DNA from: an uncultured Candidatus Binatia bacterium
Lineage (GTDB): Bacteria > Desulfobacterota > Binatia > Bin18
Reading direction: 5' to 3'
DNA length: 64,000 nt
Assembly (NCBI GenBank): GCA_965214605.1
Contig: OZ243961.1
Location: forward strand, 2,208,001-2,272,000
Every line of letters begins with the position of its first letter. The first letter of the stretch is position 1. Both the position numbers and the translations under genes were made by a program. Below, in pieces: positions 446-19,718 of this stretch. The notes beneath the pieces are model-generated. The model made no database searches, was not told where the DNA came from, and worked only from the letters and a program-made list of their open reading frames with translations.

Positions 446-830
446 GGATTGTGACGACGAGATTCGCCATGCCCTCCGCCGCCCGTTTGTCAGCAGCAGC
501 TCGTTCGTTACGTTGCCGTTGGTCGATCTGCTTCTGGTGGGAATCGATGGTGCTGAGGAGGGCTGGCTGCTGACTCTGGTTGATGGCGATGTTGCTTTGC
601 AGGCGCCCCACTTGGGTCTTCAGCGCCTCGATTTCGTCGCGGATGATCTCTATTCTCTCTGCATCGAGGGCGTCGAGTTTGTTGTCGATATCTCGCTTTT
701 CAAGCGCGAGATTGGCGATCTCCTTAGGGCTAAAATGGCGGGCGGCGAGGCGCCCCAGGGCCAGCCACGGCAAAATTTGTTGCAAACCGCTGGAGGAACA
801 TGGTAGAAGGGAGTCAAGCGATGGATTCAA
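384..830 (-). pseudogene. coiled-coil fragment, SMC/DndD-like ATPase arm
   Basis: Heptad-like stretch EKRDIDNKLDALDAERIEIIRDEIEALKTQVGRLQSNI; no Walker motifs are present, so it is a fragment. Confidence 0.35.
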
Positions 831-1009
831 TAGACGTCAAAGGCCTTCCTGAATCGCTGGCCCGGGCCGTTGAAAGCTTGGTTATTGCCTGGCGGCTGCG
901 GTTCGCGGAGCAAAACGGCGAACCGCAGCCGCCCGCGGCCTTGCCCGAGTGGAAAGGGAAGGCCGTAGGCAGCCTCAGCCGTGACGAAATCTACCGAGAG
1001 ATCGGCTGA
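800..1009 (+). CDS. small antitoxin-like protein (VapB-type)
   Basis: 69 aa, GGAGG RBS at 792-796, C-terminal SLSRDEIY motif, overlaps the start of a PIN-domain gene. Confidence 0.6.
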   Translation: MVEGSQAMDSIDVKGLPESLARAVESLVIAWRLRFAEQNGEPQPPAALPEWKGKAVGSLSRDEIYREIG

Positions 1010-3317
1010 CCTCGCTCTCTTGGACACCAACGTCCTCGTCGGTGCTCTGCTCACCGACGATTACCGCTACCCGACCGCGCGCCCTTTACTTGAGCAGGCC
1101 CACCGCAGCCAGGTGGGCTTTTGTCTTGTGCCGCAAGTGCTCGCGGAATTTTACGCGGTCATAACCAATCCGCAAAAAGTGACCGCGGTGAAAACCTCGG
1201 CGGAGGCGGTCGAGGCGGTTCGCGCCTTGTTAGCCTACCCCGGTCTTCGTCTGCTGTTTCCTCCGGTCGATAGTGTTGAGCGCTGGGCCGATCTTTTAGC
1301 CCGGCACCCGGCGACGGGCCCCCGGTTTTTCGATGTTCAGCTTGTGGCCGCGATGCTTGGAAACGATGTGCGAACTCTTTACACCTACAACGTCTCCGAC
1401 TTTGAGCCGTTCACACGCATTGCAGGCATAGAGGTCATCGACCCGCGCCGCAGCGTCCCGGGGGGTGGAAGAAAGGGAATGGCGGAAAAGCCGACAGGAC
1501 CGAGAGAGATAGGGGGAAGGCGGGGGGAGCGGACCTCAACGAGAGAATCAGGTCCGCGCCGGCCGTCAGCCGCCCCTCCTGGGTTGGTCTGCCGCCGGTT
1601 ACCGGATTCGGGGCAGTGGCAGGTTCTTCTATCCGCGGATGATGAATGCCGAATCACGGCAGTGAAGCTCGATGGGAGACTTCTGGACATGGTGAACCAC
1701 GAGTGCTGTCTGCCAGCACTCACCGGCCGCCTGACTATTGAGTTCCGGGACGAAGGGAAGAAGGAGGTATCGTTGTTCGACGATAAACCCCTGATCTTCA
1801 AACTGCCGAAGAATTGGGTCGGGGAAGGTCACAGAATCGCTGCTCTCACGAAGGGATACTTCGTTGTCATCGTGCCGAACGAGTGGGAACGAACAGGTCA
1901 TGTACCTGTTGAACCTGAAGGTTGCACGGATACCGATTTCAGAGCGCACTATTTCTTCTGGGACGGAGGAGATGCCGGGGAGGACGTCGGCGGCTTCAGG
2001 CAGCGTGACATCATCCCAACCCCATCTGGATTCGAACTGACCGGTCAGCGTGTTTTCGACAATTCCACAGACGGCGATCTGTTCTCCGGGGCTGTTCCAA
2101 ATCTAGAATTATCGTCAAACGTCGCTTGGGTCCGCGTCGGCGAGGAAAAGAAAGGGGGGTGGAAAGGCGAAAATTTCAAACCCACTGAGAAAACCCTTCC
2201 CGAAGTCTTGAATGGGCGTTACGGGCGATTTTTCATCCGGGTTTACGATTCCCAAAGACACTTGCTCGACAGCGGCGCGTTTCGATATCTGCGTGATCTC
2301 AAGCAGATTCTCGTAAATGGAGAACCGTTTGCCGAGACAACCCTTCTCGTCCCTTCCCCGACCGGACATCCATCAACCAAGGTAAGCGTTATCGGCGTTG
2401 ATGGTACAACCGTCCGCCTAATCTCGCCGCACGCAGAAGTCCAAGGCGGCGATCTCGTCATTGATCCGCGTCCAGACGCGGACTGCGTCCGCTGCACTTT
2501 GGCATCCGAGGCCGGCTGCGTCGACACCGTATTGGAGCTGCCTCGTATCTGGTGGTGTGTCGCGCGAGACGAGAGTAGCTCCGGCGAGTGGCGCGACACC
2601 CCTCTAGAGATGACGCGACAGGAATTCCGCGAACACGCCTATGCAAAGGCGACGGTCGTGCTGCGATTCCCGCGACGAATCAAGTCGGTTCAGGTCGGGT
2701 TTGATGATGAATCGTCTCAGGTGAGTCGGAAGGGAGAAAAGGACATAGCAATTCCTTTGAGGGATTTCGTCGACTGCAGGCAGATCACCCGACGATTGCA
2801 TGAAGATGCCTCGTTCAACGTCAGATGCGCCGGAGAGATAGTGACCCCCATCCGGGTGTCTTCCGACCCCGTTCCCGAGATCGTCTCTTTCACGGCGGAG
2901 CCGGCGACGGTGAACACGGGGGAGAAAGTGATCTTGCGGTGGGCCACCCGGAATACGGAGGCCGGCCACGGTGTGATCGAGCCTGAAGTCGGAGGAGTCG
3001 AATCCAGTGGGTACCATGAGGTCACGCCCCTCGAGACCGTGACCTACACGCTGAGGCTGACTGCTTGTGACATGGACGATGTGACAAAGACCGTTGTCGC
3101 GACCGTTAACCCCCCCTCGCAGCCGGATGAAAAACTAATTGCTCAGGTGAGGATAGGCAAAAGACGGAGAGACGGCAGAGGATTCAGTAACGGTGAACTT
3201 CGGGACGCAGGCTTGCGGAAGGGCGACGCGGCTCTCCGATTGATCCCCATCGACAAACGCCGACGAACCGTCCATCGGGGCAACGTGGAGAAGCTGAGGA
3301 AGATGATTCATGGCTGA
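981..3317 (+). CDS. multidomain protein: PIN (VapC-like) RNase, unknown central region, Ig-like domain, C-terminal eL13-like domain
   Basis: PIN motifs LLDTNVLV, VLAEFY, FFDVQLVA, YTYNVSDF. Ig-like PEIVSFTAEP..LRW..VTPLETVTYTL. C-terminal GRGFSNGELRDAGL..IPIDKRRRTVHRGNVEKL. Alternative in-frame ATG at 1479 preceded by AAAGGGA. Confidence 0.8.
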   Translation: MTKSTERSADLALLDTNVLVGALLTDDYRYPTARPLLEQAHRSQVGFCLVPQVLAEFYAVITNPQKVTAVKTSAEAVEAVRALLAYPGLRLLFPPVDSVERWADLLARHPATGPRFFDVQLVAAMLGNDVRTLYTYNVSDFEPFTRIAGIEVIDPRRSVPGGGRKGMAEKPTGPREIGGRRGERTSTRESGPRRPSAAPPGLVCRRLPDSGQWQVLLSADDECRITAVKLDGRLLDMVNHECCLPALTGRLTIEFRDEGKKEVSLFDDKPLIFKLPKNWVGEGHRIAALTKGYFVVIVPNEWERTGHVPVEPEGCTDTDFRAHYFFWDGGDAGEDVGGFRQRDIIPTPSGFELTGQRVFDNSTDGDLFSGAVPNLELSSNVAWVRVGEEKKGGWKGENFKPTEKTLPEVLNGRYGRFFIRVYDSQRHLLDSGAFRYLRDLKQILVNGEPFAETTLLVPSPTGHPSTKVSVIGVDGTTVRLISPHAEVQGGDLVIDPRPDADCVRCTLASEAGCVDTVLELPRIWWCVARDESSSGEWRDTPLEMTRQEFREHAYAKATVVLRFPRRIKSVQVGFDDESSQVSRKGEKDIAIPLRDFVDCRQITRRLHEDASFNVRCAGEIVTPIRVSSDPVPEIVSFTAEPATVNTGEKVILRWATRNTEAGHGVIEPEVGGVESSGYHEVTPLETVTYTLRLTACDMDDVTKTVVATVNPPSQPDEKLIAQVRIGKRRRDGRGFSNGELRDAGLRKGDAALRLIPIDKRRRTVHRGNVEKLRKMIHG

Positions 3318-6300
3318 TGCAAACGACATTCAGTCTTGGCCGGAGGAGATCCGCCAACGTTACGAGAACTACCTGAAGACCTCCTTTTTCTTCAAGAGCC
3401 CCGACCTCCGGGCCGCGTTCCGGGCCGCGTTGCAGAAAGAGGACAGTCTGCTGAAAGGCCCGTATCCCGAACCGGCGCGGGACTTCGAGAAGGGATTGAG
3501 CGCCCCGGCATTGGCGCGGGAGTGCTTCTCGGACGGGAGCAAAGGTCTCCTTCCCGCACTGATCAACGATCGGTTGTATGCGCATCAGGAACGCGCTGTC
3601 CGCGCCACGCACCTCGAAGGCCGCAATATCGTCGTCGCCACCGGTACTGCCAGCGGCAAGACCGAGAGTTTTCTCTACCCGATCCTGTTCGAGCTGTATC
3701 GCCAAAATCTTGCAGGGGAACTCGAAGACCCGGGGGTGCGGGCCGTGATCCTGTACCCGATGAACGCGCTCGCCAACGACCAACGCGAGCGCCTCGGCCA
3801 AATCCTCCAGACGTTGTGCGAGACCGCATCGGAGTTCCAACCGACGTTCGGACAGTACATCGGCCAAACACCCCAAGACGCCAGGGACGAGCGGCGCAAC
3901 GCCGCCGCGCGGGAAGAGGAACGCCTGCCCGGAGAACTCATCTTCCGCGACGAGATGCGGAGCACGCCGCCCCACATCCTGCTGACCAACTACTCGATGT
4001 TGGAATATCTGCTTATCCGCCCGGCCGACAGTCCCCTGTTCGACGGCGGCCGGGGGGCGCGCTGGCAGTTCATCGTGCTCGACGAAGCGCACCAGTACCG
4101 GGGCGCCAGGGGCATGGAGATGGGCATGTTGATCCGGCGCCTCAAGCAGCGGTTGCGCGACGGGGGACGGCAAGGTCCGTTCCGCTGCGTCGCCACCAGC
4201 GCGACCATTTCCTCCGGCGAACACGAGGACGACAAGCAAGTGGTTGCCGAGTTCGCGCAGGAACTTTTCGGAGAGCCTTTTTCGACGTCCGGCATCATTT
4301 TCAGCAAGTCGCAGACGGCCGCCGACAGGCCTCCGCGACGCTATCACGCCTTCCTGCGCGCGCTTGAGGGAGCGTTTCTCGTGCACAGGGACGGCGCGGA
4401 TGTCGTGGTGCTCAACCGCAAAAGCGAAAGTAGGAACGGGGCCATTGCGAAGCCGTTGGAAATCGCCCTGTGTCGCGAATGCGGTCAACACTACTACGTC
4501 GGCCGGGAACGGGGTAGAAAGCTGGAAGAAGCCATCCGCGATCCCAGCCATCCCGACTTCGGGGTGGAGTACTACCTACCGGTGGACGCCGGGAACGAAC
4601 TGCTGCTGTGCAGGCGCTGCGGCGTGCTCTCCAGGTCTACGCCGACATGCGATTGCGGGGCAGCGATTTCCGTCAAGAGGTGTAAATCCGACCCGGCCCA
4701 TGCCGATCAACTGAAGAAATGCGAGGCCTGCGGCTATCAGCGCGGCGGCATCGGCGACCCGGTGCAGGAGATCGTTCACGGTTCGGACGGACCCAACACT
4801 GTCATCGCCACCGCCCTGCATGAACTGCTGCCGGAAAACAGGCGCAGGGTGCTTGCGTTCGCCGACAGCCGCCAGGAGGCGGCGTTCTTCGCCTGGTACG
4901 CAGAGGACTCATACAAAAAACTGCGCGATCGCAATTTCATCCTGCGCGCCTTGACCGCGGAACCGATCAACGCGGAGGGCTTGTCCATCGACGATCTCAG
5001 AAACCGGCTGCGCAAGCAGTGGGAGGAAGCCGGCCTGGTCGGCGCGGAGCAGACCGGGGAACAGAGAGATCGGCAGGTGCTGACGTCGATCCTGCGGGAG
5101 GCGTTGACAGACGAGAAGAGATTGTCGTTGAGCGGCGTTGGCTTGGTCAAGTGGTTCGTCGGGCTTCCCGACGATTTGAATTTGCCGGATGCCATGGGGC
5201 AGCCGCCGTGGAATTTCACGGATGACGAGGCGCGCCGCCTGATCGGATACCTGTTGGACGAGTTGCGCCCGCATCGCGCCGTGAATTTGCCGGAAGGTGC
5301 CGGAACGCCTACATGGAAGGATATCTCGCCCCGGCCGCAGTGGTCTTACGCTATCGGGCGGCCTCGCGGACGAAAGCATGTCTCCCAATGGGGTGCCCCC
5401 ACATCTGCGCTCGTGACACATTTCCTTTGCCGGTTACTCTCGGACAGCGGCCTGTCCGATGACCGGAAGAAATCGGCAGCGACGGAGCTCATGGAAAAGG
5501 TGTGGCGCGCATTACAGCAACAGACCGACGCCCCCGTCCTTTCGCCCGGAAAGGCTAACGGCACCTTTCGACTGAACCCGAACTGGTTGCGGATTAAGCT
5601 CGCCGAGCTTCACGAGATCTGGGAGTGCGATACCTGCGCGGCCTTGGCCGCCTACAACGTTCGCGGCGTCTGTCCTCGAAATCGTTGCCCCGGCACCCTG
5701 AGATGCGCCAACCAAGAGCGCCTTAAGGAAAACCATTATCGACTCCTTTACGAAAACACCGACCTGCCCCCCAAGCTGAGCGCGGAAGAACATACCGCGC
5801 AGATTGACAGCGACGAGGCGCGCCGAAGGCAGGACAAATTCAAGAAGGGCCGTATACACCTTCTCAGTTCCTCCACCACATTCGAGATCGGTGTCGACCT
5901 TGGGGACTTGGAGGCCGTGTTTCTCCGCAACGTGCCGCCGGAATCGTTCAACTACGCCCAGCGCGTCGGACGGGCGGGACGACGGGAAACTCCCGGCCTG
6001 GCGCTGACCTATTGCCGCCGCAATCCGCATGACCTGTATCACTATGAGGAGCCGCTCAAGCGGGTGGTCAACGGCGGATTGCATCCGCCACGCCTGCGGA
6101 TGACGAACGAAAAAATCATCCTACGGCACATGGTCGCCACTGCCCTGTCCGCGTTCTTCGGGAAGAATGCGGTGCGCTTCGAAAAGGTGGAATGCTTCGT
6201 CGGAGAGTGGTCGAGTCCCAGCGCCGCGTCCGAACTGAAGACGTTTTGCGAGAACAACGGCGGATTGAGGGAGGCATTGTGCCAGATCGTGCCGGAGAAC

Positions 6301-7542
6301 ATGCACGGCCAAGTTGGACTCCGGGACGATATCTGGGTTGACCGTATTGCGGGACCTGGGAGCCCTTTGGCTGATATGGAAGCGGAAGCCTGCGCGGATT
6401 ACCGCGGGATGGAGAAACTCAGAGGGAAGTATTTCGATGAAGGCAAAGATAGCTATGTCAACCGTATTCGCAGACGCATGGAGACCATCGCCGCCGAATC
6501 AACTCTGAATTTCCTTTCCCGGAAAGCCGTTATCCCGAAGTACGGGTTTCCGGTGGATGTCGTCGAACTCGAGATTCGTTCTGGAGACGGCAATCCACCT
6601 GGCGTTGCGCTCCAGCGGGACTTGTCCCAGGCCATCGCCGAATACGCGCCCGGCGGCAAGGTGGTGGCCAACAAACAAGAATGGGAATCCTGCGGCGTGA
6701 AGGCGCTTGCGGGGAAGACATGGCCTGTCCGGCGTTACCAATACGACGACGCGCGGAATTTTACGCAACGGCCTGAAGATGATCAGTCCGGATCGTCCGG
6801 GGAATGGAAGAAGTATCTCATCCCGGCGTTCGGTTTTGTAACGCCGCTTTCCAGGAACCGCCCCTCGGAGCCGCATGGACGCGCGCGGCGCTGGTATACG
6901 ACCCGGCCGTTTTTCTGCGGCTTCGGAAAGGATGCACGGCCTGAAACGAAGACCGTCCTGGGCGTACAAGTGACCAAAGCCTTGCCTGGCACCTTGGTCA
7001 TCCTCTGCGAGGGCAGAAAGAGAGGCGGTTTCTATATCTGCCGTTACTGCGGGGCCCACATGACGGAACCGAAAGCCAAGCACAAGTCCCCCTTGGACTT
7101 CGAGTGCAAGGGCACCTTGGAACGATTCTCGCTCGGTCACGAACTGGTCACGGACGCGGTGCGCCTGCAGTTTCCGCAACTGTGCGGCCAGTGGGACGCT
7201 TACTCCGTTGCTTATGCCGTCCTGCTCGGCGCGGCGGAGACGCTGGATGTCCCGGATACGGACCTGAATGTGACGATAACCCGCGGTGACAATCCGGGCG
7301 ACGCCGCGATCGTGCTTTATGACAACGTGCCGGGGGGCGCCGGACTTGTGGCGCAACTGGAGCGGGAGGGTGTCTTCGGTGAAGTACTCCGCAGCGCACG
7401 AGAGCGGGTGCGGGGCAATTGCGGCTGCGACTCAAGCTGTTATGGGTGCTTGCGCAGTTACCGCAATCAGTTTGCCCACTCGCATCTGCACCGCAAGCAA
7501 GCGTTGGATGTCCTGAGTTCGAATAACCGAAACGAGCCCTGA
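3310..7542 (+). CDS. DEAD/DEAH-box SF2 helicase with C-terminal DUF1998 Zn domain (Druantia DruE-like)
   Basis: Motifs ATGTASGKTE, YPMNALANDQ, TNYSMLEYLL, LDEAH, TSAT, FEIGVDLG, QRVGRAGRR; several CxxC pairs; YDNVPGGAG..CGCDSSCYGCLRSYRNQ. 8-nt overlap with the upstream gene. Confidence 0.93.
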   Translation: MADANDIQSWPEEIRQRYENYLKTSFFFKSPDLRAAFRAALQKEDSLLKGPYPEPARDFEKGLSAPALARECFSDGSKGLLPALINDRLYAHQERAVRATHLEGRNIVVATGTASGKTESFLYPILFELYRQNLAGELEDPGVRAVILYPMNALANDQRERLGQILQTLCETASEFQPTFGQYIGQTPQDARDERRNAAAREEERLPGELIFRDEMRSTPPHILLTNYSMLEYLLIRPADSPLFDGGRGARWQFIVLDEAHQYRGARGMEMGMLIRRLKQRLRDGGRQGPFRCVATSATISSGEHEDDKQVVAEFAQELFGEPFSTSGIIFSKSQTAADRPPRRYHAFLRALEGAFLVHRDGADVVVLNRKSESRNGAIAKPLEIALCRECGQHYYVGRERGRKLEEAIRDPSHPDFGVEYYLPVDAGNELLLCRRCGVLSRSTPTCDCGAAISVKRCKSDPAHADQLKKCEACGYQRGGIGDPVQEIVHGSDGPNTVIATALHELLPENRRRVLAFADSRQEAAFFAWYAEDSYKKLRDRNFILRALTAEPINAEGLSIDDLRNRLRKQWEEAGLVGAEQTGEQRDRQVLTSILREALTDEKRLSLSGVGLVKWFVGLPDDLNLPDAMGQPPWNFTDDEARRLIGYLLDELRPHRAVNLPEGAGTPTWKDISPRPQWSYAIGRPRGRKHVSQWGAPTSALVTHFLCRLLSDSGLSDDRKKSAATELMEKVWRALQQQTDAPVLSPGKANGTFRLNPNWLRIKLAELHEIWECDTCAALAAYNVRGVCPRNRCPGTLRCANQERLKENHYRLLYENTDLPPKLSAEEHTAQIDSDEARRRQDKFKKGRIHLLSSSTTFEIGVDLGDLEAVFLRNVPPESFNYAQRVGRAGRRETPGLALTYCRRNPHDLYHYEEPLKRVVNGGLHPPRLRMTNEKIILRHMVATALSAFFGKNAVRFEKVECFVGEWSSPSAASELKTFCENNGGLREALCQIVPENMHGQVGLRDDIWVDRIAGPGSPLADMEAEACADYRGMEKLRGKYFDEGKDSYVNRIRRRMETIAAESTLNFLSRKAVIPKYGFPVDVVELEIRSGDGNPPGVALQRDLSQAIAEYAPGGKVVANKQEWESCGVKALAGKTWPVRRYQYDDARNFTQRPEDDQSGSSGEWKKYLIPAFGFVTPLSRNRPSEPHGRARRWYTTRPFFCGFGKDARPETKTVLGVQVTKALPGTLVILCEGRKRGGFYICRYCGAHMTEPKAKHKSPLDFECKGTLERFSLGHELVTDAVRLQFPQLCGQWDAYSVAYAVLLGAAETLDVPDTDLNVTITRGDNPGDAAIVLYDNVPGGAGLVAQLEREGVFGEVLRSARERVRGNCGCDSSCYGCLRSYRNQFAHSHLHRKQALDVLSSNNRNEP

Positions 7543-8285
7543 CCCCCGGGCCGTCGCCGACAGCCGTCAACACTTCGTCCAGGTGCCGGTAGTCCCCATC
7601 GGGTCAATTCCAACAGAGGTAGGTAAACTCTCACAGCAATTTGCTTGCTGACGGCTTTTTGATACCGCGTTTTTTTCATCCAATTGTGAAGATTAGCTTC
7701 GGTGGTGTTGTAACGCTCAGAGATAAATTTCTGCGTTGAGCCGTTCGCCAGTAGCGCTTCGATTTCAGGGCGAAACGCATCCAGTTTGCTTTTCCCCGGC
7801 CCTTTAGGGCGACCGAGTTGCATGCCGGCCGCTTTTTTGACTCGGAGCGCTTCGATGGTGCGCTGCGAGATCAGATCACGCTCAATTTCGGCGGCCATCG
7901 AGAAAGCCATCGCAACGACCTGGCTGTGAATGCTCCGATCAAGCTGCCAGTTGCCCTTGACGGCATAACCCGCAATACCGCGCTCTAACGCGATGGACAA
8001 GATCTCCATACACTCCAGCATGCTGCGCCCAAGGCGTGACAGCTCACTGACGACAATCGCATCGCCTTTCTGACACACTTCCAGCAGTTGAGCGATTTTT
8101 CGCTTTTTCCACGACACCCGGTCTGAGACCGCCTCTTCGACAAATTCCACGCGGCCCAAATCGTGGGTATTGGCCAGCTTCAGGATATCGGCCTTGTTCT
8201 CTGCTACATCTTGATCGGCAGTTGACACCCCCAAGTACCCCATCGCCTTGGCTTGTGATGGAGTTTTTTTGGTGCGTCGGGTCAT
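7467..8285 (-). pseudogene. serine resolvase of a Tn3-family element, degenerate
   Basis: YLGVSTADQD (R to G in the YxRVST motif), ELSRLGRS, AEIERDLISQRT, LGRPKG, C-terminal HTH that runs on past its expected end. Confidence 0.8.
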
Positions 8286-8421
8286 AATTCGAAGCAAACC
8301 ACTATTTTCGTATTAAACAATAATAGTGGTTGTCTTTTTATCAATGAGTTTGGTTGAAGATATCCGCTCCTCAAAACGTTCGTTTTCCCGATAATTTTAG
8401 CCGCCGGCGCAAGGGGATGCT

Positions 8422-8960
8422 ATGCCGAGGATGAAAATACTCAGCACCATCGAACAAGAGACCTTTGACACACCGCCGCTGTTCAATAGCGCCCAGCGCA
8501 AGCAGTATTTTGATGCCTCGCTGCAAATCCAACAGATTGCCAATGGGTTACGCACACCGATCAATCGGTTGTATTTTCTACTGAGCCGCGATTATTTCAA
8601 AGCGACCAAGCGCTTTTTTCCAGCGCGGACATTTCACTCACGCGATATTGAATATGTCGCCTCCCGAGACGGGCTTGCGTTTGTTGAACTCGCCCTCAGC
8701 CAAGCAGAAAAACAGGAACAAGAAACCGCCGAGGGCTGCAAACGATTGATCAAAAACTGTATCACCTGCTGGAATTATCTGTACCTGAGTCAGAAACTGA
8801 CCGAAGCCAAAGAGGAGGAAAAACGACAAATCCTACTTCACGCCATCGCTAACGGTTCCGTGGTGTCCTGACAGCACTTCAACCTGCTTGGCGAGTCCGA
8901 TTTCTCGGAAGAAAAACTGCAGGATTCCGTCGGAATTAAGCCCCCAAAGTTGACCACTTC
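8422..8960 (+). pseudogene. Tn3-family transposase, internally deleted
   Basis: N-terminus (MPRMKILS..PPLFNSAQRKQYF) joined directly to C-terminus (RLIKNCITCWNYLYLSQKL..SVVS*QHFNLLGE); stop at 8869-8871; divergent from the resolvase. Confidence 0.85.
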
Positions 8961-9730: not shown

Positions 9731-10297
9731 TCATTTGGTCACACCAGCTGCAGCCAAGCAGAGATGCTTGAGTGTTTCGAGCTGTCGGAGCAGGTGTTCC
9801 CGATCGCTCGCATACCGCTTAGCCGCTGAAGCCGAACGTTGAACGAAATCTGCCAAGTCGGTCGCCGAAAGACCGGACCGTGTGAGTACTGTCTCATGGG
9901 AAGACAGAATTTTTTCGATGACTGCACTGAAACTTTTTGAAGCACGCTCCAGCTCTTTGCGGCTGCTTGCGTCAAAGCCCTCGACAATGTCTTCTGCATT
10001 GGGAGTAGCTCGAACCATGTCGAAACCTACCACAACCATCTTGTCGAAAACAAGGTCGAGCTGCGCGCTCAAACCATTCGTGGCCTCAAGCCCGGTTTCG
10101 ACCTCGGCGATTGCATTTTCGGTATAGAGCTGGATGTGGGCCCGCAGGATCTCATCCTTGTTGCTGAAGGCGTTGTAGAGGGTTTGCCTTGAAATGCCAG
10201 CCTCGTTGGCCAGGTCGCCCATGCTCGTGCGTTTGACACCGTAGCGCGAAAACAAGCGCATCGCAGCGTCGAGAATATTTTTTTCTTTCTCGTGCAT
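9731..10297 (-). CDS. TetR/AcrR family transcriptional regulator
   Basis: ILDAAMRLFSRYGVKRTSMGDLANEAGISRQTLYNAFSNKDEIL HTH; likely start at ATG 10297. Confidence 0.92.
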   Translation of the reverse strand: MHEKEKNILDAAMRLFSRYGVKRTSMGDLANEAGISRQTLYNAFSNKDEILRAHIQLYTENAIAEVETGLEATNGLSAQLDLVFDKMVVVGFDMVRATPNAEDIVEGFDASSRKELERASKSFSAVIEKILSSHETVLTRSGLSATDLADFVQRSASAAKRYASDREHLLRQLETLKHLCLAAAGVTK

Positions 10298-10303
10298 TTT
10301 TAC

Positions 10304-10360
10304 ATATTGACAAAAATAGTTCATAGGTCAAGATATTGACAATCATACTGATATTGTACA
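10304..10360. promoter_or_regulatory. divergent promoter and putative TetR operator
   Basis: Two ATATTGACAA copies and a TTGAC-N15-GTCAA palindrome (10307-10331) between divergent tetR and hydrolase genes. Confidence 0.5.
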
Positions 10361-10403: not shown

Positions 10404-11300
10404 ATGAATGAAGAGCAGGCAAGACAAATCGTAAATGCCGCTGTCCAAGGATTGGCACTACAGAATCTTCCCAGAACACCCATTCTGTATCGGCCGAGTG
10501 ATTATGACATGTCTTACGAAGATGTGTTTTTTCACGCCATAGACGGGACGGTTCTGGAAGGCTGGTTCATACCGTCCGAATCCGACAACTTGATTATCTG
10601 CAATCATTTTGGCACCGCTAATCGCTCAGGTTTTTCTGGTGGAGAATCCGAGTTTTGGAAGCAACGAGGTGTCGCAATAAACTTTCTGCCAAAATATAAG
10701 GCGCTCCATGATGCGGGATACAATATGCTCGCTTACGACCTGCGTGGCCATGGCCTCAGTGCGCCCAGGACCCTACCCCAGTGTGGGTCTTGGCAAGCTT
10801 GAATATCGCGATGTGATCGGCTCACTGCGATACGCACAAGCACGCAACGGCCCATATGCAAGTTTCTCTGCTGAGCATGTGCTCCGGCGCCGTCTCCACA
10901 ATCATCGCCATGGAGAAACATCCCGAAGAATTTGAACATGTAAAATCCATGATTGCACTTCAACCGCTTTCAGCGAAGCCGGGCGTGGACGCAGGAATGC
11001 AAAATGGATTGGAATTATTCGACGAAGCATTTCGACAGCTAACGGGATGTAGAGTGAGCGACTTCGCTATGCCGGCATCTGCAAAATCGATACGCGTTCC
11101 AACGTTTCTCGTTCAGGTACGTGATGACGTGATGACAAAACCATAGGACATGCAGTCGGTTTACGACACCATGCCGATTGAAGACAAAAAACTGTTTTGG
11201 ATTGAAGGGACAACCGTACGTGAGGAGGCATACAGATATTTCCCTGAGCATCCCGAGCAAATGCTCCAGTGGTACGCCGCGCCCATGAAGACGTCGCTGA
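10404..11300 (+). pseudogene. alpha/beta hydrolase, frameshifted with internal stop
   Basis: DGTVLEGWFIP, AYDLRGHGLS, VPTFLVQV..D, KKLFWIEG spread over several ORF pieces; TAG at 11144-11146. Confidence 0.8.
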
Positions 11301-11389
11301 CGCTGCAAGGAGGTCCCTATGCAAGACTTCACGGACAAAGTAGTGGGGAGAACAGCGGCGCGAGAATGCTCCCCTGAAGCGCCTGGTTG

Positions 11390-11470
11390 CTCGGAAAAAA
11401 AGCGGCCGGATGCCGTCGGAATCAAGCCCCCAAAATTGCCGAGTGAGATCCGCTTGAATGTTGGGGAGCG
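11390..11470 (+). mobile_element. second diverged copy of the Tn3 tnpA 3' end
   Basis: CTCGGAAAAAAAGCGGCCGGATGCCGTCGGAATCAAGCCCCCAAAATTG aligns with 8904-8952 (peptide SE.K..D.VGIKPPKL). Confidence 0.7.
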
Positions 11471-11794
11471 GACAATGATCAAAAACGCTTTTCCGGCTTC
11501 TCCTCGCGGAAGTGCCTGATGTTCCGGCATGGGTTCGAGCCGGCCGGCCTCATGCTCTCTATCTCCGCCAGGGTGAACATGCGCGACGGCGTTCGCTCCT
11601 TTTCCTAGCACCCTGCCGGGACCGCCGCGCCGAGAGACGGATCAGCTGGAAAAATGACTCATGGGAAAAGCAGGGATGGCCAGCAACAGGGACAAGTCGG
11701 ACCGCCGGGAAGCACGCCATTGACTCCGCTTCGGCTGAATCCTGAACTCAAGACCCTGTGTGAGGAGGTATGAGCGCTACGGAAGACGACTCAC

Positions 11795-12881
11795 TCACGT
11801 TCGTGACCCCTCATCATCGCGCTTCGATAGGTTTCTTCCCGCCCTTTCGGACAAATTCCCATTCAGTAGGGCCCCTCGGTTGGCCCGAACGAAATCTGCG
11901 TAAACTCCCAGGACCGACTTCGCTTCTCTACTGAGCCTTTGGATTTTCTTCGGATCCACATGATGGGCGCACGCATCTAGCTCCTTGGCTACGTCAACCA
12001 AGACCCGAGCATTGTGTTCCTTGGTGAAATACTCAGCGATAATATCGGCGCGGAGATCCTGGAATCTCTTGTCCATGGCCGCTTCGGCTTGCTTTGAGAT
12101 GACGCGGCCGTTTTCCAGGCTCCTTGCTATGATGTCGAGCACCGCTTTGAGACTATTCTGGACTCGTGCATCGCCCGCATCGCCATAGGTCACTCCGTCC
12201 TGAATAGTGCGGTGAGGTGATTGCGGATCGTCATACACGACGCGTTCAAGTGCACTGTCGAGAGCAATGCAGGCAAGGGCGGCTGTGAAGTACGCGCCGC
12301 GGAGCGCCTGTTCCTTGCAATAAGGCCTTGCTTCGGCCCGTTCTGCAAAAAAATTAAATCCTGTCATTGCCTTATTAAAGGCGGGGTAGCCCTGTAAGCT
12401 AATGAGAGCTGACTTAGCGTCAGTGATGCGCCTCAGCCAGTCACCGTCCTCCTTATGGCGCTTGTACTTTTTAATGATTGTTAGTGAACTCCTCAAGCGT
12501 CATACGGTCTCTCGTGTCGAGATTTTTCTTGATCCGGGTCAGAAAAGCTTTGGTCAGGACTGCGACGTTCTGTTGGCGTGCGAATCTGGCGATCTTCGAC
12601 CCGTCATTAGTTGTAGCTACAACAGCTCTATTGCATCCCAAGGCAAGCTGTATTCCACGCATCCACAGGATTCGTTCAAACGCTCTGGGAGATCGCCTAT
12701 TCTTGACATCTATAACGATGCGGGTCTGGACACTTGAGGATTGTCGGCCGTAGAGCCATACGTCGATATCGGTAACTTGCTCATCCTCGTGTTTGTACGC
12801 GGCGCTTCTCAGTGCGAAGAAGCCTTGGTGAGCAAAGTATGCCCGCACGAGTTCCTCCAAATCTGAGCCTTTTCGTGTCAT
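11795..12881 (-). pseudogene. PD-(D/E)xK restriction-endonuclease-like protein, split by frameshift
   Basis: GSDLEELVR..TDIDVW..IVIDVKNR nuclease motif in 12471-12881; continues in another frame at 11795-12496. Confidence 0.6.
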
Positions 12882-12882
12882 A

Positions 12883-13477
12883 TCACCCTCCGCTCCGTAG
12901 TCGGTCTAGCATCTCACCGACAAAATGCTTATCCGAAGGACTATCCTTTTTCCGGCCCTCGACTCTGACCTCACGCGGTCCCTCGAAAGCAGTTGCCGCT
13001 GATTCAGCGAGCAGCAAGGCCTCCTGCGCCGCCACGTACGATTGTGAGAGCCAATTCGCCGACATCTTTTTTTAGCAGATGGAATGTATAGCGATCATGA
13101 TCTGTCCGAGCCACTTGTACGACCTGTCGCCTCTCAAGCTCTCGGTAGTCCTCACCGATGGCGGCCACACCTGGGCCACCAACCTCATGTCCAGCAATTA
13201 AGGCTCTCAGGAGAGAGCATCTGGAAGAGTAATTTTTCCTCAGGCGTCTATCGTTGCGAGTGCGCCCATACGTTAAGGACGCAAGCAATGCCTTTGCATC
13301 GTCTATGGGATCTTCCTCAAAAGGCCGGTGGTATTTCTGGAAATCGTCGGGCGACATAACATAGCCGACCGCCTCCTTGGAGTTACTCACCTCCATTCGG
13401 TCGAACAAGCCCACGCTGACCAAGCGGCGGTATAGGTCTCTACCGAGCAGTTTCTCGACCTCTTCTTCATGCAACAC
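12883..13477 (-). pseudogene. C-terminal part of a hypothetical protein, operonic with the nuclease gene
   Basis: Protein-like sequence (AIGEDYRELERRQVVQV..LLKKDVGELAL) with a frameshift; stop codon sits 1 nt before the nuclease ATG. Confidence 0.5.
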
Positions 13478-16388: not shown

Positions 16389-16948
16389 ATGCCGTACAAA
16401 ATCGCCGATCTGGACACGCAGCAAAGCACCAGCGTGCATTGGGCTGGGCGGCGCGCTGAGAACGCCATCACGCCGGAAGTACGCGCCAAGGCCTTCAAGT
16501 CAGTGGATCCCGTGCTCAAAGACGTGGAGAGGTTCGACCTCTCCATTTTCGACGGGGCGCGGCACTCGTCAGCCGAAACGCGGCAGGCCTGTCAAGCCGC
16601 CGATTTGGTCATCATTCCAACGAGCGAAGGCCTCGCCGACCTACAGCCCTCGGTAATCCTCGCGAATAACCTTCTGAAAGCGGAGATTCCGGTCGAAAGA
16701 ATCGCCTTCGCGTCTGCATCACATCGGACTCGGCGCGCGAGATCGCAGGAGCGCGCGCCTATCTCGGCAAGACGCCATGCACCGTGCTCGCCGGCGAAAT
16801 CCCGTTCCGCTCAGCGTTCAAAACCGCAATGGATCAGGGGAAGGCAATTACGGAAACGTCTTTCCCGACCCTGCGAAAACGCGCCGATGCGAGGGCGCAG
16901 AACATCATTGACGCGGTCGCCGCTGCCGCGAACAGAGAGGGAGCGTGA
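16389..16948 (+). pseudogene. plasmid ParA-like protein, 5'-truncated and frameshifted
   Basis: [37 protein letters not shown]; second frame [14 protein letters not shown] ends at TGA 16946-16948, overlapping the ATG of a short partner remnant. Confidence 0.75.
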
Positions 16949-17243
16949 TGGCCGATATCATCACACTGAGAGCGAAAGCAGACAAAGGCGCGCCGCCACT
17001 GCCGGAGTGGCAGACGTATCTTGGAAGCTGAGATCAGACGGAGGCTCCCGAACGTCATCGCACAATAAACGGGCTTGTCCGACCGCGGGGCAGGCGTGGG
17101 CCACTATTTTTGGCTTGGCTCGACACGAACCGTCGAACAGGTGGGGGAAGGACAGGCGCGGGGAAGATTGTATAGAATTCCCGAGCTTGAGGGTTGCTTA
17201 TCATGGCACCTCGAGGAAAGTCTGCAAGGAAGGGGGAGTGTCC

Positions 17244-18968
17244 ATGGCGCAGGATGTCCCGTATCCCGTAAAACCGGCCGCCTTGCCCGGCAGGGAGCCG
17301 GTCGAAGCAGCGCAAGCCGCGCTGGCCGAAGCCGGGAGCGCGCAGCGCGGGGCGATTTTTACGCGGCGCGAGATTACCGCGTTCATCCTCGATCTGGTCG
17401 GCTACACGGCCAACCGGCCCCTGCACGAGCGCCAGCTGCTGGAGCCCGCGGTCGGCGGCGGGGATTTCTTGCTGGTCGCGATTGAGCGGTTACTCATGGC
17501 CTGGCAGAAAACCCCGCGCCAAGATGATCCCGGTACGGCGTTGGCGGATGCCGTGCGCGGCGTCGAGCTGCACGGCCGCACCTTCGCGGTCACCTGCGAA
17601 AAGGTGCGCGCCACGGTCAAGGCGGCCGGGATTCCGGAGAAGGCGGCGACGACGCTCGCCGACCGTTGGCTCATCCATGCCGATTTCTTGCTGACTCCGC
17701 TCCCCTCCCCTTTCCATTACGTCGTCGGCAATCCGCCCTACGTCCGCCACGAACGGATCCCCCCCGCCCTCCTTGCTGCCTACCGGACGCGCTATACCAC
17801 CGTCTTTGATCGGGCCGATTTGTATGTCCCCTTTCTGGAACGCTCGCTCGGGTGTCTGGCCCCAGGCGGCCTGCTCGGCTTTATCTGCGCCGACCGCTGG
17901 ACGAAGAACCGCTATGGGGCCCCTTTGCGCCAACTGATTGCCGACCGGTTCCATCTCCGGACCTATATCGATATGGCCGAGACGACTGCTTTTCAGAGAC
18001 CGGTGAGCGCCTATCCGGCGATCATCATCATTGGCAACGAACAGCCGGGCCCAACCCGGGTAGCCCGGCGCCCCGCCATCCAAGCCGCCCCGCTCACAGC
18101 TCTCGGGCAGACCCTCTTGTCGAAAGCCCCCCCGGCTCCTGAGAGCGGGGTGCAGGAACTGCGTGGGGTCGCAGCGAGCGCGGCGCCCTGGATTCTGGAG
18201 TCCGGGGCGCCGCCGGCGCTGGCGCGCCGCCTGGAACAGCGCTTTCCGCCGCTTGAAGAGGCTGGCTGCAAGGTCGGAATCGGGGTGGCTACCGGAGCCG
18301 ATCAGGTCTTTATCGGGCAGTATGACACGCTTGACGTCGAACCGAGCCGCAAACTGCCCCTGGCCATGACCCGCGATATCGCGAGCGGCACCGTCCACTG
18401 GCGCGGTCGGGGCCTGGTTAATCCCTTTACGGAGGCAGGCCGGGTGGTCGATCTGAACGCCTACCCCCGGCTCAAAGCCTATCTGGAAGCGCGCAAGGAG
18501 CAGTTGAGCAAGCGCCACATTGCCAAGAAGGTGCCGGCCCACTGGTATCGTACCATCGATCGCATTCAGCCGGCGCTGGCTCGGCAGCCGAAATTACTGA
18601 TCCCCGATATTAAGGGCGACGCGCAGGTCGTCTATGAGGGCGGCCACCTCTATCCGCACCACAATTTGTATTTCATGACCAGCGCGGAATGGGATTTGCA
18701 CGCGTTGCAGGCGGTTCTGCGCGCCGGGCTGGCCCAGCTGTTCGTGTCGGTCTACTCGCCCCGTCTGCGGGGAGGATATCTGCGCTTTCAGGCCCAGTAC
18801 TTGCGCCGCATTCGGCTGCCGCGCTGGCAGGACGTCGAGGCCCGGCTGAAAACGACGCTCATCGCCGCCGCCCGGCGGGGCGATCTCGCGGGCGGTACGG
18901 TGGCCGTAGGCCGCTTGTACGGCCTCTCCAAAGAGGAAGAGCGCGTGCTCGGGCGGCATGGGAGATGA
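17244..18968 (+). CDS. N6-adenine DNA methyltransferase, M.PaeR7I/M.XhoI-like
   Basis: [20 protein letters not shown] (motif I), VVGNPPYVR (motif IV), [20 protein letters not shown]; GGGGAG RBS before ATG 17244. Confidence 0.9.
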
Positions 18969-18986
18969 ACGGGAGAAGCCAGGCGG

Positions 18987-19718
18987 ATGGCGGTGGCTCG
19001 AGCAGATTATGAGGAGCAGGCCCGGGCGGCCGTGCCAGCCTTTTGGGGGAGCCGGGACAAAGCGCGGCGGAAACAACTCGCCGGCGACCGGGCCGAGCGG
19101 GGCGCGGTCACCGGGGGCAAGACCCTGGACGGGTTTGTGGCCTGAGTGCGGGAGAGCGTCACCGCCAATGGGCTGGATCAGGCGCAGCTCCATCACCAGC
19201 AGCGGGTGGTGACGGTGCCCGGCTATTTTCGCCCAACCAAGCGCTGGGATTTGCTCGTGCTGAACGCCGGCCGCCTGATCGCAGCCCGGGAGTTCAAAAG
19301 CCAAGTCGGGCCGTCTTTTGGGAACAATGCCAATAATCGTGCCGAGGAAGCCATCGGCACGGCGCAGGACTTCTGGATCGCCTACCGGGCAGGCGCGTTT
19401 GGGGAACAGCCGCGCCCGTTCGGGGGCGGGCTCCTGCTTCTTGAAGAGGCCCCGCAATCCCGCACGCCGGTGCGCGAGCCGTCGCTGCATTTTCCCGTGT
19501 TCGAGGAGTTTCACAAGGCTTCCGACGATGCCGAGCGCTACCATATGCTGTGTCGTAAGCTCGTGCAGGAGCGGCTGTATACTGCTGCAGCGCTCCTGGT
19601 TTCGCCGCGCACGGCGGTGAAGACGAGCGCCTATACGGAACTGAGCGCCCTGACCGGTCTGCGGATGTTCGTGACCGAGCTGGCCGGCCATGTCGCTGCC
19701 GAAGCGGCAAGAGTCTGA
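18987..19718 (+). pseudogene. PaeR7I/XhoI-family type II restriction endonuclease with nonsense codon
   Basis: [51 protein letters not shown]; in-frame TGA at 19143-19145 (codon 53). Confidence 0.9.

Follow-up and report, generated by a model that had tools for sequence, protein, structure and literature searches.

The DNA considered here is a 64,000-nucleotide stretch (the window) from an uncultured Candidatus Binatia bacterium (assembly GCA_965214605.1, contig OZ243961.1, positions 2,208,001 to 2,272,000 of the forward strand). Two adjoining genes on its forward strand are the subject of this report. The first is an open reading frame (ORF) of 778 amino acids (aa) at nucleotides (nt) 981-3317; its conserved part, the partner protein hereafter called X, extends from an internal ATG at 1479 to 3317 and has 125 homologues at E <= 0.001. 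The second, at 3310..7542, encodes a 1410-aa DruE-like helicase of the YprA/MrfA family. X is built largely of immunoglobulin (Ig)-like beta-sandwich domains (1578..3110) and ends in a small domain (3132..3314) that is homologous to the ribosomal protein eL13. According to Table 1 of PMC9932298, eL13 is specific to archaea and eukaryotes, with an archaeal range that takes in TACK, Asgard and Nanoarchaeota and leaves out Euryarchaeota. This agrees with an earlier note on the same DNA, which had stated that bacterial ribosomes lack eL13. The note had also held the host protein to be non-ribosomal, as is indeed the case for a 778-aa ORF with an Ig-like array and a helicase neighbor.

An eL13-like domain at the C-terminus of X

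Nucleotides 3132-3317 of the forward strand encode 61 residues and a stop codon, i.e., the C-terminal end of the 778-aa ORF. The earlier note had assigned an eL13-like domain to this segment, and the peptide does contain the string quoted there. Profile hidden Markov models (HMMs) bear the assignment out. The Pfam model PF01294 (Ribosomal_L13e) matches the isolated 61-aa piece with 29.0 bits (E 1.2e-6), above its gathering score of 24.9, and the whole 778-aa protein with 23.5 bits (E 5.7e-5), slightly below that score. The NCBIfam model for archaeal 50S L13e, NF008914, matches with 51.9 bits (E 4.2e-14) over positions 26-75 of 83, short of its equivalog cut-off of 96. The HMM-matched core spans nt 3147-3308, corresponding to residues 723-776. 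When a profile of 120 homologues was compared with all PDB chain sequences, 72 distinct sequences matched at E <= 1, and every one of the best 60, those listed by name, is called eL13 or L13. The top match is the archaeal chain 9e6q_AH from Pyrobaculum calidifontis (E 2.3e-7), and the others listed are eukaryotic eL13 proteins with E values of about 1e-4 to 5e-3.

Structure prediction leads to the same family. From an 11-row alignment (the window and ten related loci), AlphaFold2 modelled the 61 residues as a beta-hairpin and three helices, with a mean pLDDT (predicted local distance difference test) score of 73.9; within the full-length model of the protein, the same domain reaches about 89-95. 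A Foldseek search of the 61-residue model against the PDB, a comparison that the earlier note had proposed, returned 115 matches at E <= 10, of which a single one had E <= 0.001. The best 50 of these 115 are chains of ribosome entries throughout, with template modelling (TM) scores of 0.52-0.69 when normalized to the query and identities of 25-40%. Among these 50, 32 are chains or entries named eL13 in the PDB sequence profile search.

An alternative is that the resemblance is compositional, the product of an arginine-rich tail, or that the ORF is a chimera of assembly or annotation. The piece is short and very basic, with a net charge of about +13 by hand count, the whole-protein PF01294 score falls just under the gathering score, and a repeat protein, P0138, also matches the domain profile. 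However, four tests agree (PF01294, NF008914, the PDB profile and Foldseek), and the invariant residues held in common with archaeal L13e include many that are not basic (G, G, F, S, E, A, G, D, H and N). The fusion also recurs, being present in 96 of the 120 homologues and, among the 15 genome loci with tails read, in 10. We therefore give this alternative hardly any credence. The agreement of HMM, PDB-profile and Foldseek results argues for homology rather than composition, and the C-terminus encoded in the window is a homologue of eL13. That an eL13-derived module sits on the partner of a DruE-type helicase is, in our estimate, very probably true.

To place the domain among its relatives, we searched 1.84 billion representative proteins with a profile of it (alignment A4) and obtained 1142 matches at E <= 1e-3, of which 346 reached E <= 1e-10. 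The best 150 of the 1142 fall into three kinds: long proteins carrying the domain at the C-terminus (family X), short proteins of 64-142 aa, and proteins of 300-480 aa (family F2). In the short proteins, which score 67-72 bits against the domain profile, the domain lies near the N-terminus. These 64-142-aa proteins are archaeal L13e, and they are the nearest relatives of the domain outside family X. Five of the nine short-protein clusters that were looked up carry L13e as their source name (e.g., in Thermoproteota and Korarchaeota), and NF008914 matched all 10 of the short proteins scanned, with 66-91 bits. A word-based search for shorter proteins, with residues 715-778 as the query, had given no match; it was the later, exhaustive profile search that recovered archaeal L13e.

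The closeness of the two groups is considerable. Against 25 short L13e proteins, the window domain shows 34-57% identity (median 49%) over about 50 residues; against the same domain of other long family members, the median is 50%. For a comparison column by column, 163 family domains and 34 archaeal L13e sequences were aligned to one HMM. Twenty columns reach 80% conservation or more in the 163 family domains; at 16 of them, archaeal L13e has the same consensus residue, and the residues invariant in both sets are R, G-x-G-F-S, E, A-G, D-x-R-R-R, H and N. Information content per column is correlated between the family and archaeal L13e (r 0.62, Spearman 0.68). The module is thus constrained in much the same way as the ribosomal protein is. 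Fold, invariant residues and about 49% identity are thus shared with archaeal L13e. The difference lies in context: eL13 is a free-standing, full-length small protein, whereas the module of X comprises the conserved core only and forms the tail of a bacterial Ig-array protein of about 610-780 aa, in the window that of the 778-aa ORF.

The source genome itself is bacterial. It has bS6, and among 14 control genomes the bS6 model matched only the 10 bacterial ones. A quick IQ-TREE analysis of the domain (96 rows, 63 columns) separated family from archaeal sequences with 67% support in the Shimodaira-Hasegawa-like approximate likelihood ratio test (SH-aLRT). Two sequences labelled archaeal by their length, P0209 and P0177, were placed within bacterial groups and are probably fragments. 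Because eL13 is ancestral and widespread in archaea and, within bacteria, confined to family X and F2, we infer that the module was captured from an archaeon, in the direction archaea to bacteria. The cross-domain acquisition put forward in the earlier note accordingly stands as far as the short archaeal L13e relatives and the bacterial genome carry it, and its direction is read from distribution. The phylogeny with archaeal eL13 that the note had also proposed yields the family/archaeal split and does not settle on a donor lineage.

Family F2 offers a point of comparison. These proteins of about 300-480 aa (P0163, P0176, P0183, P0190 and P0205) are basic at the N-terminus, contain long acidic repeats and end in an eL13-like domain. 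They share with X the same invariant eL13 residues, and their basic-helix and acidic-linker N-terminus resembles that of most X proteins; unlike X, they lack an Ig array. In the domain tree, the F2 domain forms a clade of its own (SH-aLRT 98). None of five F2 loci in metagenomes (L018-L022) has a DruE-like neighbor; the neighbors there are metabolic and transporter-like ORFs.

Several further proteins were met in the profile search. P0213, P0246 and P0251 are short and carry an N-terminal L13e domain followed by repeats resembling helix-hairpin-helix motifs; the source name of P0251 is 'predicted flap endonuclease-1-like 5' DNA nuclease'. L13e may thus be fused to DNA-binding repeats also outside its ribosomal form. 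Three long proteins, P0138, P0148 and P0181, owe their matches to 18-21 short stretches, at profile positions of about 16-37. In P0138, these are tandem decapeptides of the form A-G-F-S-A-x-E-L-K-x, a repeat that probably resembles the G-F-S...E-L...A-G segment without being a relative of it.

X and its DruE-like helicase

The conserved part of X begins close to the internal ATG. A purine-rich stretch, GGTGGAAG, precedes this codon at nt 1479, and family conservation starts 7 residues past it, at a P-R-x-I-G-G-R-R motif (alignments A1 to A3). In the word-indexed search that found the 125 relatives, matches other than the window's own protein cover the later 51-88% of the query. Most relatives begin with a short basic helix and a disordered linker that is long, acidic and of low complexity. 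The Ig-like array, delimited with AlphaFold2 and Foldseek, occupies residues ~200-710, and its last domain (residues 633-710, nt 2877-3110) is not present in all family members. With a 120-row alignment, AlphaFold2 gave pLDDT values above 90 in most 10-residue blocks of residues 200-778, and the model consists nearly throughout of beta-strands as far as residue 710, beyond which come the C-terminal helices. Foldseek matches to X include titin I65-I70, GhpA fragments, S-layer proteins and complement macroglobulin (MG)-domain proteins, with E values of 2e-10 and weaker; a search of the ESM Atlas with the partner gave no usable match. In one family member of 1173 aa, P0235, the whole Ig-array core is present as a tandem duplicate with nearly identical copies, followed by a single C-terminal eL13-like domain.

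The gene downstream was identified with PADLOC and Pfam. Its product is a large YprA/MrfA-type helicase of superfamily 2 that has the domains expected of DruE: a DEAD domain (nt 3580-4215, E 6.8e-19), a Helicase_C domain (nt 5737-5985, E 5.5e-10) and the MrfA zinc-binding (MZB/DUF1998) domain (nt 7210-7452, E 4.2e-14), all on the forward strand. PADLOC places it with DruE1 (E 2.3e-152, 508 bits) and DruE3 (E 1.3e-137), and the next families (SngC, BrxH, DpdJ and DrmA) reach only about 60-78 bits. The protein ends 29 residues past the MZB domain, and neither a phospholipase D (PLD) nuclease nor a Vsr nuclease was found at its C-terminus, where Pfam gave no PLD match.

The two genes belong together. 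The stop codon of X and the start of the helicase overlap by 8 nt, ATGGCTGA, at 3310..3317 of the forward strand. In a scan for the partner that took one genome per species, 16 loci were found, all in metagenome-assembled genomes; 15 of them have a DruE-like gene directly downstream of X, and the remaining one holds only an 84-residue fragment of the partner. Judged from ORF ends and helicase starts, 10 of the 15 loci with a helicase show this 8-nt overlap as well. Across these 15, identity to the window is 63.5-76.5% for the helicase and 40.7-51.8% for the partner. When ORFs of at least 100 aa were clustered across the loci, X and the helicase were the only shared genes; other clusters were either overlapping frames of the pair or present in five loci at most, all but one of these being Latescibacterota. 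The pairing of X with a DruE-type helicase is therefore strict, and the two are probably coupled in translation. In one Rhodobacterales locus (L014:13024-17507), the DruE-like gene is split into 10853-13024 and 17507-19561 by an insert of ~4.5 kb.

Among defence systems, Druantia is widespread, and preprints of 2025-2026 and one journal paper of 2026, all concerned with the DruH-DruE form, have reportedly worked out how its type III functions. In the available text of these preprints, type III consists of DruH and DruE, and DruE is a 3'-to-5' helicase-nuclease acting on forked or single-stranded DNA intermediates (10.64898/2026.05.13.724313, 10.64898/2026.05.12.724681, 10.64898/2026.05.13.724758). 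DruH, of the YjiT family, has an N-terminal helical nuclease domain, Ig-like domains and, at its C-terminus, a helical domain, as the 2026 Druantia preprints describe in the parts available; it is said there to contain six Ig-like domains, its terminal helical domains binding DNA and the DruE stalk (10.64898/2026.05.13.724313). Bell et al. describe a 'type III-like / III-B' branch whose DruE is compact and mostly lacks a nuclease (main text of 10.1101/2025.09.15.676423).

Much of the window pair fits this pattern. It shares with Druantia type III a two-gene operon in which a large Ig-rich partner with a small, terminal non-Ig domain precedes a DruE-type helicase, and that helicase combines a BrxA-like insert region with an MZB/DUF1998 domain at the C-terminus. 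In lacking a PLD nuclease, the helicase agrees with most of the III-like branch and differs from III-A, whose DruE has C-terminal PLD nuclease domains. The partners are less alike. Unlike DruH, X has no N-terminal helical nuclease domain, and it ends in an eL13-like (or uS17, bS6 or other) module where DruH ends in a C-terminal helical domain. No YjiT-type Pfam domain matched the window partner at E <= 1. At the level of sequence, X thus has no detectable relation to DruH, which it resembles only in the Ig-like array and the small terminal domain. DISARM, ARMADA and Dpd share the helicase family with an MZB domain, according to the available text of 10.64898/2026.05.13.724758, but the window helicase matches their models far more weakly (DrmA, DpdJ and BrxH, 57-77 bits), and no conserved methyltransferase, BrxHII-type helicase or PLD gene accompanies the X-DruE pair.

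The literature searched contains no report of an eL13 or L13e tail on a Druantia partner. By term search, the main texts of four papers on Druantia and YprA helicases mention neither L13e nor a ribosomal domain (10.64898/2026.05.12.722862, 10.64898/2026.05.13.724313, 10.64898/2026.05.13.724758, 10.1101/2025.09.15.676423). In a fifth (10.64898/2026.05.12.724681), no 'ribosomal' or eL13 term occurs, and the term search returned a single 'L13' without its context. Bell et al. leave the III-B partner undescribed in their main text, and their supplementary tables may name it (10.1101/2025.09.15.676423). The helicase family and the two-gene layout were already known; for the partner family, its exchangeable tail derived from ribosomal proteins and the archaeal source of the commonest form of that tail, the literature searched gave no precedent.

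The distribution of the pair is broad and patchy. Hosts of the 16 loci include Thermodesulfobacteriota, Limisphaerales, Latescibacterota, Rhodothermales, Vicinamibacteraceae, Oligoflexales and Azotimanducaceae, as well as Binatia, Dehalococcoidia, Gemmatimonadota, Rhodobacterales, Bryobacterales and one gammaproteobacterium. A search of 40 relatives of the source genome detected X in none of them (0 of 7 from the same genus, 0 of 24 from the same family), and tblastn of the partner against 72,556 plasmid records and 50,697 phage records gave no match. Several genes of interest here lie downstream of the pair (7467-8871, 9731-10324 and 16389-18968), among them a serine resolvase (PF00239, E 3e-22), a Tn3 remnant in the form of a short ORF joining DUF4158 and DDE fragments, a TetR gene and a methylase. 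The last is an 859-aa Eco57I/N6-methylase/TaqI_C protein of a type IIG-like restriction-modification kind. Between 8 and 15 kb, the content of guanine and cytosine falls from ~0.60 to 0.49-0.55. These features suggest a mobile or island region downstream of the pair. X and the DruE-like helicase form a mobile, accessory, horizontally acquired two-gene module of the Druantia type.

A module of this kind could also serve DNA repair or the maintenance of a mobile element rather than immunity. YprA/MrfA helicases do include DNA-repair clades (main text of 10.1101/2025.09.15.676423), no defence model matches the partner, and no nuclease was found. This interpretation nevertheless appears improbable: the helicase reaches 508 bits with DruE1 and only 78 bits with the next family outside Dru, the pair is patchy among relatives (0/40) yet crosses phyla at about 70% identity, and a restriction-modification-type methylase and transposon remnants lie nearby.

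An exchangeable C-terminus and an unusual N-terminus

The C-terminus of X is a modular slot, eL13-like in most members. Tails were counted in the 120 homologues listed, i.e., the best 120 of the 125 at E <= 0.001. An eL13-type motif is present in the tails of 96, of which 87 carry it after the last Ig-like domain and nine lack that domain; at the level of genome loci, 10 of the 15 with tails read have the eL13-like fusion. Among the other 24 tails, six are of one unrelated type, six of another and two of a third, and six of the 24 look truncated or frameshifted. Some alternative tails can be named. The tail of P0074 is ribosomal uS17 (PF00366, E 2.4e-30, full-length match) and that of P0070 is ribosomal bS6 (PF01250, E 5.7e-7), while P0121 has a marginal TrcR-like Pfam match and P0107 a MacB-like piece that is perhaps a chimera. 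A second, different X with uS17 occurs in a Dehalococcoidia genome (L010:10909-11178, forward strand); there, the fused uS17 scores 100.7 bits with the Pfam model and the genome's own rpsQ product 85.8 bits, the two being ~55% identical by hand count. Between loci that differ in the tail of X, helicase identity remains at about 64-72%. The idea that all tails are ribosomal was dropped, as Pfam searches on eight alternative tails gave the marginal TrcR match of P0121 only.

The exchange of tails bears on what the slot does. One possibility is that the eL13-like module is a docking piece for the DruE-like helicase and binds no nucleic acid. It is the last domain of X, its codons overlap the helicase start, and the C-terminal helical domain of DruH is described as binding the DruE stalk in the available text of 10.64898/2026.05.13.724313. 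If the module were a docking surface, one would expect it to change together with its counterpart, yet the helicase stays 63.5-76.5% identical whether the partner tail is eL13-like, uS17-like or unrelated. Moreover, the conserved residues of the module are those of free-standing archaeal L13e, which has no DruE partner, and the F2 family has the module without a neighboring helicase. We regard a pure docking role as unlikely. The argument is instead for a slot devoted to target binding or sensing, since it accepts uS17 (with its oligonucleotide/oligosaccharide-binding fold), bS6 and TrcR-like pieces while the helicase hardly changes.

In another interpretation, the ribosomal modules are integrated decoys, baiting phage factors in such a way that modification or binding of the bait switches the helicase on. 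Three ribosomal-protein families (eL13, uS17 and bS6) in one slot would suit this idea, as would the fused uS17, which fits its family model as well as the genome's own S17 does, and the ribosomal-protein residue pattern retained by the eL13-like module. However, the majority module (96/120) imitates a protein that is absent from bacterial ribosomes (PMC9932298, Table 1), so phages would have no native target of this kind, and other tails are non-ribosomal. A decoy function is thus quite improbable, somewhat more so than either docking or a role in repair.

At its N-terminus, the window protein departs from its family. A PIN/VapC-like domain (981..1478, forward strand; residues 13-155 matched) is fused in frame to X, with no stop codon before 3315. 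The PIN part matches Pfam PF01850 with 24.6 bits (E 4.1e-5; gathering score 23.6) and the VapC family model TIGR00028 with 61.2 bits (E 1.3e-16), short of its cut-off of 73.6. AlphaFold2 confidence is low across residues 1-166, where the alignment consists of the query alone. No PIN match occurs in the 16 related loci, and no homologue was found that covers the PIN part; the PIN-X fusion is seen only in this window. Upstream of the PIN ORF and overlapping it lies a 69-aa ORF (800..1009, forward strand), a possible VapB-type antitoxin gene. It had no Pfam match at E <= 0.01, and the putative antitoxin role is suggested by its position ahead of a VapC-type PIN domain and by nothing else. Here, a vapBC-like cassette replaces the usual basic-helix and acidic-linker N-terminus. 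A run of six G residues is located at nt 1460-1465, just 5' of the internal ATG. Inspection of the other frames by eye, with a frameshift artefact at this run in mind as the source of the fusion, gave nothing decisive. The partner may be made as the PIN fusion, from the internal ATG at 1479, or both.

Proposed function and significance

Taken together, these results are best read as a Druantia-III-like defence pair in which the tail of the partner is an archaeal-derived module for binding RNA or another nucleic acid. We put the probability of this reading at roughly 60%, and the binding target and anti-phage activity are what we infer in it. The narrower claim, that the function of the module is to bind RNA or nucleic acid, is more tentative and falls slightly short of even odds. 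It draws on the eL13 residues that have been kept, given that the only known job of eL13 is to hold ribosomal RNA (rRNA), and on the net charge. The module would then keep its ribosomal role by gripping structured RNA or another nucleic acid, and the C-terminal slot would supply the contact by which the partner targets or senses. By analogy with DruH-DruE, the Ig array may sense infection or bridge to the helicase, and DruE would act as the motor on phage DNA intermediates. The earlier note had also considered a defence domain related to eL13. This idea fares well in that the gene overlaps that of a DruE-like helicase, and its anti-phage side stays conditional.

Several results weigh against this reading. 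As regards the domain itself, the match to PF01294 covers profile positions 56-99 of 180, and the Foldseek superpositions have high root-mean-square deviations of 6-8 A. AlphaFold2 training included ribosome structures; thus, the fold match partly depends on the sequence match. As regards origin, the only L13e-like match in the source genome by NF008914 is this C-terminus, in a search that matched 0 of 14 control genomes and whose sensitivity is therefore undemonstrated, and the SH-aLRT of 67% in the domain tree comes without a settled donor lineage or number of acquisitions. The search was also blank in one of the controls, Sulfolobus acidocaldarius, either for lack of a detectable L13e there or because very short genes were missed. 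As regards defence, PADLOC, whose model set presumably holds DruH models, matched the window partner with none of its models at E <= 0.01, and 39 members yielded a single, chance-level match at E <= 1 (PD-T4-6, E 0.32, one member). The link to Druantia is accordingly carried by the helicase alone. Neither X nor the helicase contains a recognizable nuclease, which leaves the effector step, i.e., how the pair stops phage, without an explanation. Finally, several alternative tails lack a recognizable family, which means that the slot in general cannot be called nucleic-acid-binding.

A bolder proposal is that the tails are working ribosomal-protein modules that dock the helicase complex onto ribosomes or rRNA. 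This is doubtful, although less so than the docking, repair and decoy interpretations discussed above. If it were true, immunity based on a DNA helicase would be wired to translation, for example as a means of finding phage DNA under transcription and translation, or of reading the state of ribosomes during infection. No archaeal ribosomal-protein domain that bacterial immunity captured and then kept under its original sequence constraints would have been described before.

For the family, the findings point to a sister form of Druantia III with a nuclease-less helicase, a partner unrelated in sequence to DruH, and an exchangeable terminal module. This module is mostly of ribosomal-protein origin, and its commonest form is an archaeal protein foreign to bacteria. 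The system offers testable handles, including the binding target of the module, the phage range upon swapping eL13, uS17 and bS6, and the constraints on RNA binding outside the ribosome. More generally, it would provide an example of a ribosomal-protein domain that moved from archaea to bacteria, as its distribution suggests, and then spread among many phyla.

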